From: Escherichia phage P1
Sequence record: NC_005856.1
DNA length: 64,000 nt
Reading direction: 5' to 3' (one strand)
A program made the translations under genes and the position numbers. This document shows positions 15,986-17,243 of this stretch, piece by piece (the stretch's first letter is position 1; each line of letters opens with the position of its first letter). A model generated the notes under the pieces. The model was not told where the DNA came from, did no database searches, and was given only the letters and a program-made list of their open reading frames with translations.

Positions 15986-16798
15986 CTATTTTAATTCTAT
16001 GTAGTTTTTAAATTCTCCCTCATATTTATACATGATGCTATCAAATCCTTCCATTACATCAACGAATTGTTGTGAACATTCCGGCTTCCAAGGCGTACAC
16101 TTACGAACCATATCCATTTTATTCTTATCCTTCGTTGTATCGACTAAGGATAGGTACCCTATAAAATTCATCATCTGAACAGGATCTTGATTTGTGAATA
16201 TATATTTGACGTTTTGCTTAGTAGGTGAAAAAGAATCAAAAGCAGGGAACATATATTCACCAGAAAAAGAGAGTGCAGCATCAATGACGTCTGTTGCTGG
16301 AGTGCAGTTGCTCAGAATTGGCACTAAGCTAAAATTAGCACCGGAGCACACTGCATATATATCATCCCCTTTTTTTAGTTTTAACAGAGAGTCTTGCTTT
16401 GAATCCAATATTTTCAATTTGATATAATTTAGTGGCGTTGCATTTTCCCCTGGAGTAAATAATTCTACAATTGGTTTATTATTCACCATTCTTATGGATT
16501 TTATTTCACCATACACAATTGGAATTGTGTTCCATTTTTCCTGAGCAGCAAATTCATTATCTTTAAAATCATTAACCAACTCAGATGGCAAATGATAACC
16601 AAATTGATTGTTCATTGCTTTCGAAGCAAATCCAGACAAATAGAATGCCCTTACTAAATCATAATCTTTCTTTGAGGTAGAAAGCCAATCTGGCAATTTA
16701 TTATCAGCTATCGCGCTTCCAGCAAAAATAGCACAACAAAATGTTATTACATTAAATAATTTCATTTTCCATTCACTCATTAATCGGTTTAAACTCAC
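15986..16798 (-). CDS. secreted protein, SimC-like superinfection-exclusion candidate
   Basis: 270-aa ORF with signal peptide (…FCCAIFAGSAIA); AT-rich; located between tail genes and immI like the P1 sim locus. Confidence 0.5.
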   Translation of the reverse strand: MSLNRLMSEWKMKLFNVITFCCAIFAGSAIADNKLPDWLSTSKKDYDLVRAFYLSGFASKAMNNQFGYHLPSELVNDFKDNEFAAQEKWNTIPIVYGEIKSIRMVNNKPIVELFTPGENATPLNYIKLKILDSKQDSLLKLKKGDDIYAVCSGANFSLVPILSNCTPATDVIDAALSFSGEYMFPAFDSFSPTKQNVKYIFTNQDPVQMMNFIGYLSLVDTTKDKNKMDMVRKCTPWKPECSQQFVDVMEGFDSIMYKYEGEFKNYIELK

Positions 16799-17108
16799 TA
16801 ATTAATTCACCAAGACTATTTGGGTATGCTTTATAAATAACATACTCCGAAGAGCCATCTGAATATTGGTAAACCCCATAACAGACCAGTTTATTTATTC
16901 CTTTCTGAATAGTTTTTTGATTATAAGAATCAACCACTGTTATTCCATATGACGATAATATTTCGTTATATTCTTCAATAAGAGCTTTTCTTGTTTCCAC
17001 TGAATTGCAATCTACCTTCGAAAAGTCAACTTCATCAGCAAAAACATTAAATGTTAAAAAGGAAAGCACTAAAAACAAACGAATCAGCATAAATCCACTC
17101 CTACGCAT
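16773..17108 (-). CDS. secreted protein, SimB-like
   Basis: 111-aa ORF with signal peptide (…LTFNVFA); overlaps upstream gene. Confidence 0.45.
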   Translation of the reverse strand: MRRSGFMLIRLFLVLSFLTFNVFADEVDFSKVDCNSVETRKALIEEYNEILSSYGITVVDSYNQKTIQKGINKLVCYGVYQYSDGSSEYVIYKAYPNSLGELISEFKPINE

Positions 17109-17111
17109 GGA

Positions 17112-17243
17112 TTAATAGTCATTGATCGCAAAGGCGTAAACGTGCCCAAGGTATTTCGTATAATCGGTACAAATCTCCTTTACGCTTGATGCTGCATTAA
17201 CAGTCCCAGCCATAAATAATAACGGTAGTAATAGTTTTCTCAT
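17112..17243 (-). CDS. 43-aa signal-peptide-bearing small ORF (SimA position)
   Basis: Translated by hand: MRKLLLPLLFMAGTVNAASSVKEICTDYTKYLGHVYAFAINDY; not in supplied ORF track (<60 aa). Confidence 0.3.
   Translation of the reverse strand: MRKLLLPLLFMAGTVNAASSVKEICTDYTKYLGHVYAFAINDY

Follow-up and report, generated by a model that had tools for sequence, protein, structure and literature searches.

In bacteriophage P1, the DNA between the tail genes and the immunity region immI carries three open reading frames (ORFs) in succession on the minus strand, spanning positions 15986–17270 of the window, by which is meant the whole 64,000-nucleotide stretch that was analysed. These ORFs are the sim (superimmunity) operon of P1 itself. 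In a megablast search of the phage collection, positions 15700–17900 were 100% identical over 2201 nt to positions 46500–48700 of AF234173.1 (Escherichia phage P1), and OP279344.1 was likewise 100% identical over the same 2201 nt; window coordinates correspond to AF234173 record coordinates minus 30800. The block also shares 99.2% identity with M34382 ("Bacteriophage P1 sim region proteins"), the sim sequence of 1990. AF234173 labels simC as "superimmunity" and both simB and simA as "putative superimmunity accessory function". According to the same annotation, the low-side neighbors are pmgC, tub, pmgB and sit (tail genes), which lie behind the late promoter LPsit, and the high-side neighbors are the C1 operator Oc4, the C4 antisense RNA, icd and ant1/ant2, that is, immI. 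C4 RNA was found independently at 17537–17622 with Rfam (RF01695), and ORFs corresponding to pmgC, tub, pmgB and ant1 were located in the window.

The original prediction, made from the sequence alone, had described three consecutive ORFs in an AT-rich block that matched the position of sim. All of this was borne out: the ORFs are present, they are identical to simC, simB and simA of AF234173 and sit between the tail genes and immI, and GC content is 0.31–0.35 in most 300-nt intervals between 15750 and 17399 (0.39 in one), as against 0.46–0.51 in the adjacent flanks. Genes and position, between pmgC and c4, are those of the P1 sim operon in AF234173 and M34382, and the present reading differs from the 2004 P1 annotation only in the start codons (simB 105, simA 43 and simC 259 aa) and in the interpretation of simA as a stump. 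The locus is therefore not new; it has reportedly been named since 1982, was sequenced in 1990 and was annotated in the P1 genome of 2004. simC is a published superinfection exclusion gene (PMC2409434). The features discussed below are collected in Table 1.

Table 1. Features of the sim region, in window coordinates.
Feature	Position	Strand	Basis or detail
Low-GC replaceable cassette with the sim operon	15829..17341		P7 homology edges, GC profile, gene content of relatives
Intrinsic-terminator-like hairpin	15932..15951	-	AACGCCC-ATTAAA-GGGCGTT, then T run
simC, Sim superinfection-exclusion protein	15986..16765	-	259 aa from likely start ATG 16765
simB, predicted exported protein, 105 aa	16773..17090	-	Likely start ATG 17090, AGGAG Shine-Dalgarno before start
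Putative truncation/recombination junction	17101..17104		BLAST end-points, nucleotide alignment
simA, apparent stump, 43 codons	17112..17243	-	Likely start ATG 17243, GGTGAGG Shine-Dalgarno
PsimA, predicted sigma-70 promoter	17308..17334	-	AF234173 annotation, predicted only

Operon signals, start codons and export

The hairpin listed in Table 1 lies 34 nt past the simC stop codon, is the sole terminator-like site within 15700–17500, and is probably the end of the sim operon. At the opposite end, PsimA directly abuts the divergent c4 promoter/operator region. This promoter was not picked out by a consensus scan, and because the promoter-like matches of that scan were no commoner in the region than in shuffled sequences, promoter positions were taken from the GenBank annotation. 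With these boundaries, transcription of the operon would run along the minus strand, starting upstream of simA and ending at the terminator just past simC.

The lengths given by GenBank (264, 111, and 52 aa for simC, simB, and simA) and those of the mechanical ORFs (270 and 111 aa for simC and simB) probably overshoot the true starts. For simC, GenBank uses ATG 16780 and the mechanical ORF (15986..16798) begins at GTG 16798. The likely true start is ATG 16765, which is conserved in a homologue of only 39% identity and yields a protein of the same length as M34382 sim region ORF 2 and the dominant NCBI cluster (P0001, 777 members). For simB, GenBank and the mechanical ORF agree on ATG 17108 (16773..17108); NCBI models of SimB are 105 aa long, and the phrog_14329 profile (105 positions) matches residues 7–111 of the 111-aa form, both of which point to ATG 17090 as the likely start. 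AF234173 and the mechanical ORF also agree on ATG 17270 for simA (17112..17270), and the 43-aa version starts at an internal ATG, 17243, which comparison with its family again suggests is the likely true start. The simB stop codon falls 7 nt before the revised simC start and overlaps the annotated one (ATGAGTGA), so simB and simC appear to be tightly coupled.

Signal peptides were called by a rule-based scan of our own and not by SignalP, the criteria being a basic n-region, a hydrophobic h-region of 10–15 residues, small residues at −3 and −1, and no lipobox Cys at +1. All three sim products carry a Sec-type signal peptide with an AXA-type cleavage site and are devoid of a lipobox: MKLFNVITFCCAIFAGSAIA followed by DN in SimC, MLIRLFLVLSFLTFNVFA followed by DE in SimB, and MRKLLLPLLFMAGTVNA followed by AS in SimA. 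The signal peptides that had been noticed at the outset are therefore present, as n-h-c patterns, on every one of the three ORFs. The accompanying description of three secreted proteins holds for simC and simB but goes too far for the third, simA, which appears to be the 5′ stump of a longer gene, so that the most likely output of the locus is a pair of full-length exported proteins and a 26-residue leftover peptide.

The sim cassette, simA and simB in relatives

The sim operon occupies a sharply bounded slot. Homology between P1 and P7 ends at 15828 and restarts at 17342, which places the left edge just beyond LPsit (15808–15826) and the right edge at Oc4 (17340–17356). In P7, RCS47, and SJ46 the slot is taken by an exported DUF5384 protein together with a lipoprotein that matches TraT and glycine-zipper families weakly, and in vB_EcoM-Ro157c2YLVW (hereafter Ro157c2YLVW) it holds a long SimA and a 158-aa exported protein. 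A published survey counts simC-simB-simA as variable region 4 in P1-like phage-plasmids, for which it lists eight variable regions of low GC (PMC9603915). At a coverage of at least 80%, the sim cassette was found in 127 of 5426 complete E. coli genomes, nearly always on plasmids. In PLSDB, at least 80% of it was covered in 137 plasmids, as one uninterrupted piece among the matches listed. Most RefSeq plasmid records list just two hypothetical proteins at the sim match.

Two further relatives show other arrangements. L008, a 96-kb contig (GCA_005690115.1), is a diverged P1-like element with a sim operon that encodes, in order, a 179-aa long SimA, a 108-aa SimB homologue, and a 264-aa SimC homologue (39% identity), followed by pmgC, and that adjoins an icd/ant-like module. 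L007, a Logan contig, has the order 107-aa membrane protein, simB, simC, long simA, 158-aa exported protein, and pmgC; its 158-aa protein is an orthologue of that of Ro157c2YLVW and bears a precomputed Pfam YfjT (PF27224) tag. Because L007 represents a third arrangement, the sim modules seem to have been shuffled more than once. The long SimA-SimB-SimC order of L008 makes it likely that the ancestral state was a three-gene operon with a full-length first gene.

The comparison with relatives argues that simA of P1 is the 5′ stump of a longer exported-protein gene, the products of which range from 179 to 246 aa. Past the signal peptide (VNA/AS), P1 SimA has only about 26 residues. The PHROG 3933 profile has 213 positions, and SimA matches positions 1–41 only, beginning at the Met of ATG 17243. 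In Ro157c2YLVW, the ORF in the same place encodes 224 aa, the first 45 of which are identical to P1 SimA, and a search with this long form recovered 28 clusters of 179–246 aa in Escherichia, Salmonella, and Klebsiella, some of them named "simA domain protein". In the family alignment, P1 SimA ends where the others run on into a conserved core of ~130 residues, which is predicted to be a helical bundle (AlphaFold2, pLDDT >90) and which holds the second of two conserved Cys residues.

The point of truncation can be placed closely. The BLAST end-point in P1 is position 17104 against Ro157c2YLVW, L007, and L008 alike, and at this junction 524 nt of L008 correspond to 60 nt in P1. The P1 simA stop codon, TAA, aligns with a Glu codon, GAA or GAG, in the long forms; 8 nt farther on, homology is lost. 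The ATG 17108 that GenBank uses for simB sits in a shared octamer, TCCATGCG, which in long SimA encodes an internal Ser-Met-Arg. Between the stump and Ro157c2YLVW there are 0 differences in 108 nt, which leaves no power for a dN/dS estimate.

These observations bear on whether SimA might be a genuine secreted micro-protein, one of three functional exported products of the locus that work in concert. In favor of this, simA has its signal peptide, a good Shine-Dalgarno sequence and the status of an annotated gene in P1, and the truncated arrangement is the common one among plasmids, as seen in the 137 records with at least 80% of the cassette. A three-protein system in P1 is nevertheless very unlikely, as SimA corresponds to just the first ~45 residues of a family whose core is conserved and confidently folded, keeps one of the two conserved Cys residues, and terminates at what is a Glu codon in the long forms; simA also receives no PGAP call. 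The stump might nonetheless undergo translation and export and have some activity. We favor the reading of simA as what is left of a third periplasmic protein of greater length, now without function or with a regulatory one at most, and propose that its supply of the promoter-proximal translation start may explain why it persists.

A possible relationship between long SimA and T4 Spackle (PF25676; Pfam E 0.048) was an attractive lead because P1 Sit carries a transglycosylase domain. It was rejected: hhalign gave a probability of 1.5% against the verified T4 sequence, and a search of the PDB with the long SimA family profile returned no match. Neither SimA nor long SimA thus resembled Spackle in sequence or fold.

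SimB has a signal peptide at residues 1–18 (VFA/DE) and two Cys residues in the mature protein. Its distribution is narrow (12 clusters), its dN/dS of 0.18 indicates purifying selection, and simB and simC are co-linear in P1, L007, and L008. In phage D6, the 298-aa product of orf79 has a SimB-like N-terminal domain (52% identity over 86 residues, both Cys conserved) followed by a C-terminal part of ~160 residues. The possibility that orf79 is a SimB-SimC fusion was rejected: its C-terminal domain compared with SimC gave a BLASTP E of ~1 and belongs to no Pfam family. The fusion of a SimB-like domain to an unrelated C-terminal domain suggests that SimB is a separable module with a downstream partner that differs between phages, supplied in cis in D6 and in trans in P1. 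That the SimB domain of D6 is joined to a domain without detectable similarity to SimC counts against a SimB-SimC interaction.

SimC family and predicted fold

SimC comprises a signal peptide (residues 1–20, AIA/DN), a helical N-terminal segment, a predicted OB fold at approximately residues 58–157, and a C-terminal domain that is helical and bears a CX6C motif. The mature protein contains four Cys residues, one pair in the OB domain (AVCSG...SNC) and the other in the C-terminal domain (CTPWKPEC), which would suit the oxidizing periplasm. The SimC family is very small. A word-index search of 5.8 billion sequences identified 4 clusters of the SimC family, and an exhaustive phmmer search of 1.84 billion proteins identified 15 representatives, just three of which are full-length relatives (84, 39, and 28% identity). 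Of 141 plasmid records, 138 carry simC intact and at full length, and the dN/dS of simC (0.34 against L007 and 0.28 against L008) indicates purifying selection. PADLOC-DB gave no family match to any of the three Sim proteins at E up to 1, NCBIfam gave no meaningful match to any of them, and none was returned when PDB sequences were searched with the SimC family profile.

The assignment of the OB domain draws on family comparison and on structure prediction. P1 SimC scores 19.0–19.1 bits against Pfam PF12869 (tRNA_anti-like; E ~1e-3), below the gathering threshold of 23.5, with residues 62–154 aligned to profile positions 52–144 of 146. Five of eight SimC family members match PF12869, the best with an E of 2e-14, and SimC can be connected to the family through these intermediate sequences together with a five-strand OB topology. 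In the AlphaFold2 model, which is of moderate confidence overall (mean pLDDT 63.5, and 41–71 across the OB region), the order of elements at residues 83–156 is b1-b2-b3-helix-b4-b5, and the helical C-terminal domain is better predicted. With a Pfam score below threshold and a model of this quality, SimC is predicted to have an OB fold of the PF12869 type at its center. Known extracytoplasmic OB proteins of PF12869 include a Klebsiella lipoprotein (3F1Z), B. subtilis YobA (4QY7), and the C-terminal domain of C. difficile TcdC; beyond this domain, SimC adds the N-terminal helical segment and the C-terminal helical domain of ~100 residues. No PF12869 member with a demonstrated role in phage exclusion was found.

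The nature of the fold raises the question of its ligand. The best structural matches of the SimC OB domain are SSB, PriB, Stn1, and the anticodon-binding OB folds of tRNA synthetases, and a PF12869-like domain, that of C. difficile TcdC, bound DNA quadruplexes in vitro (PMC3575817). Together with the relationship of SimC to PF12869, this could be taken to mean that SimC binds incoming P1 DNA, or the leading end of it, should it become exposed in the periplasm, so that translocation stalls or the DNA is laid open to periplasmic nucleases. However, the structural matches share 8–15% identity with SimC, from which a DNA-binding surface is not inferable, proteins and sugars are also ligands of OB folds, and the specificity of exclusion for P1 is easier to explain by recognition of a protein. 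In contractile-tail phages, moreover, the genome is generally taken to pass through the interior of the tail tube. Direct binding of DNA is thus highly improbable, and a protein target for the OB domain is preferred.

Exclusion of superinfecting P1 and the role of the operon

In studies by Kliem and Dreiseikelmann in 1989 and by Maillou and Dreiseikelmann in 1990, adsorption was reportedly normal, transfected DNA reportedly bypassed the block, the Sim precursor was said to be processed, and the phenotype was said to be observed from multicopy clones. Work by Devlin et al. in 1982 is also said to have needed multicopy clones for the phenotype. More recent papers state that Sim is thought to keep superinfecting phage DNA out of the cytoplasm (PMC8546580, PMC9177967), and in a CRISPRi screen all three sim genes were dispensable for plaque formation (PMC10695390). 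The original prediction had called the mechanism poorly defined, and this is a fair description: the searchable literature offers only the DNA-entry block reported in 1982–1990, and nothing on the mechanism beyond it was found there.

The reading that we prefer, to which we assign a probability of roughly 0.85, is that the locus is the P1 sim operon, in which the OB module of periplasmic SimC would act against the ejection apparatus, with SimB as its partner and simA as a remnant. SimC would be exported through Sec, lose its 20-residue signal peptide, and act as a soluble protein in the periplasm, where it would halt superinfecting P1 after adsorption and before the DNA gets to the cytoplasm. 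Judging from the anatomy of the protein, the central OB domain may be the binding or recognition module. Its most likely target would be a part of the ejection apparatus, such as the tip of the tail tube or the Sit tape-measure/transglycosylase protein, or else the entry point at the inner membrane. SimB would be a small, disulfide-containing periplasmic partner that is co-translated with SimC, a role suggested only by gene order and coupling; the modularity of SimB gives a hint that it may be physically associated with SimC.

Several phage systems offer comparisons. Spackle and Imm of T4 are phage envelope proteins that, like Sim, stop DNA entry by phages of the same kind after adsorption, and Spackle is also a small Sec-exported periplasmic protein. 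Ltp of the Streptococcus phage TP-J34 and gp15 of HK97 block tape-measure-dependent DNA entry and allow adsorption, and we propose them as a working analogy for SimC. SimC, which has no lipobox and is predicted to be a soluble periplasmic protein, differs from both, as Ltp is a lipoprotein and gp15 resides in the inner membrane. No sequence or fold relationship was found between SimC and either Ltp or gp15.

A different view of the cassette would be that exclusion is a side effect of overexpression, and that at prophage copy number the slot houses a "moron" with some other envelope-related purpose, for which host fitness, protection from other phages or colicins, and lysogenic conversion are candidates. 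The unrelated envelope proteins found in the same slot of P7 and Ro157c2YLVW, the low GC content of the block, the non-essential nature of its genes, and the multicopy clones that the 1982 phenotype reportedly required would all agree with such a slot. Yet simB and simC are conserved and intact in ~140 natural P1-like plasmids and are under purifying selection, and the SimB/SimC family is essentially confined to P1-like elements, which fits a function directed at P1-like phages. A purpose unrelated to exclusion is accordingly judged unlikely, and exclusion by SimC remains the preferred account.

SimC might also be the first functionally characterized member of a wider class, the extracytoplasmic PF12869-type OB exclusion proteins of temperate phages, although we regard this as decidedly unlikely. 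Similar "tRNA_anti-like" proteins are encoded by uncultured siphoviruses, which would support the existence of such a class. The interval between repressor and integrase genes is the classic position of sie genes. In Lactobacillus and Leuconostoc phages, TcdC-like PF12869 proteins are encoded between the repressor and integrase genes (PMC3575817). If this wider reading were true, the ancestral sim would have been a three-component periplasmic system (long SimA, SimB, and SimC), of which P1 has lost one layer.

The additions made here to a known locus are modest: simA is read as a stump with a precise junction, start codons are revised, SimC gains a putative PF12869-type OB core, and SimB is recognized as modular. 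Annotations could justifiably adopt the new starts and mark simA as "truncated". For work on the mechanism, the predicted OB core of SimC, SimB as a separable module, and the simA remnant with its full-length form in relatives may serve as handles. The sim operon matters in that P1 is among the most widely used transducing phages and its phage-plasmid family now spreads resistance genes.

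Truncation of simA and state of simC

By sequence comparison, simA of P1 is the 5′ stump of a gene encoding an exported helical protein of 179-246 aa. Homology of P1 to the long simA genes ends at one identical base in all three independent comparators (phage vB_EcoM-Ro157c2YLVW, the P1-like Logan contig SRR14689322, and a diverged P1-like element, GCA_005690115.1), and the simB start codon annotated in GenBank falls within the simA remnant. simC was unbroken in 138 of 141 plasmids. By contrast, it is split into two annotated pieces in the records of phages vB_EcoM-673R5 and vB_EcoM-813R1, where tblastn recovered it only as 2-3 pieces; this could reflect either frameshift decay or sequencing error.

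Features of the sim region and of comparator elements
Feature	Sequence	Coordinates	Description
Antisense 126-aa ORF	window	17403-17783, minus	over c4/a1b1 region
simA stop/simB start	window	17101-17114	region of truncation junction
Long simA	vB_EcoM-Ro157c2YLVW	1164-1838	comparator
Long simA	GCA_005690115.1	5059-5598	comparator
Long simA	Logan SRR14689322 contig	1921-2568	comparator
Split simC	vB_EcoM-673R5	825-1602	two annotated pieces
orf79	phage D6 (MF356679)	2848-3744	SimB-like domain fused to C-terminal domain
Tandem cassettes	Logan SRR14689322 contig	209-3109	P1-like element
P7 cassette	AF503408	658-1722	same slot

Predicted ArgR boxes and an antisense ORF

ArgR boxes were predicted in P1 in 2008 (PMC2409434): an adjoining pair inside simC, whose first member is at P1 nt 47270, and a further one at nt 47906. 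Window coordinates are 30800 lower than those of the P1 record AF234173, with which positions 15700-17900 were compared. The boxes thus correspond to window positions of about 16470 and 17106, the latter at the simA/simB junction, and the predicted box at nt 47906 coincides exactly with the point of simA truncation. In DNA this AT-rich, such predictions may be chance matches. The antisense ORF over c4/a1b1, which is absent from the P1 annotation, is kept as a 109-aa ORF in P7 and vB_EcoM-Ro157c2YLVW; most likely it is a side effect of the C4 RNA and icd leader being conserved.

Rearrangement of modules in the slot

In phage D6, orf79 joins a SimB-like domain (52% identity) to an unrelated C-terminal domain of ~160 residues; it is located close to mat and the icd/antirepressor genes, and pmgC is not adjacent. 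In P7, RCS47, and SJ46, the slot that holds sim in P1 encodes an exported coiled-coil protein with DUF5384, together with a lipoprotein weakly similar to TraT and glycine-zipper proteins; all alternative cassettes seen encode envelope proteins. The Logan contig holds both the sim cassette and the one with long simA in tandem, in the order 107-aa membrane protein, simB, simC (84% identity), full-length simA-like gene, 158-aa YfjT-like exported protein, and pmgC. This tandem arrangement therefore indicates that the modules of the slot have been reshuffled repeatedly.
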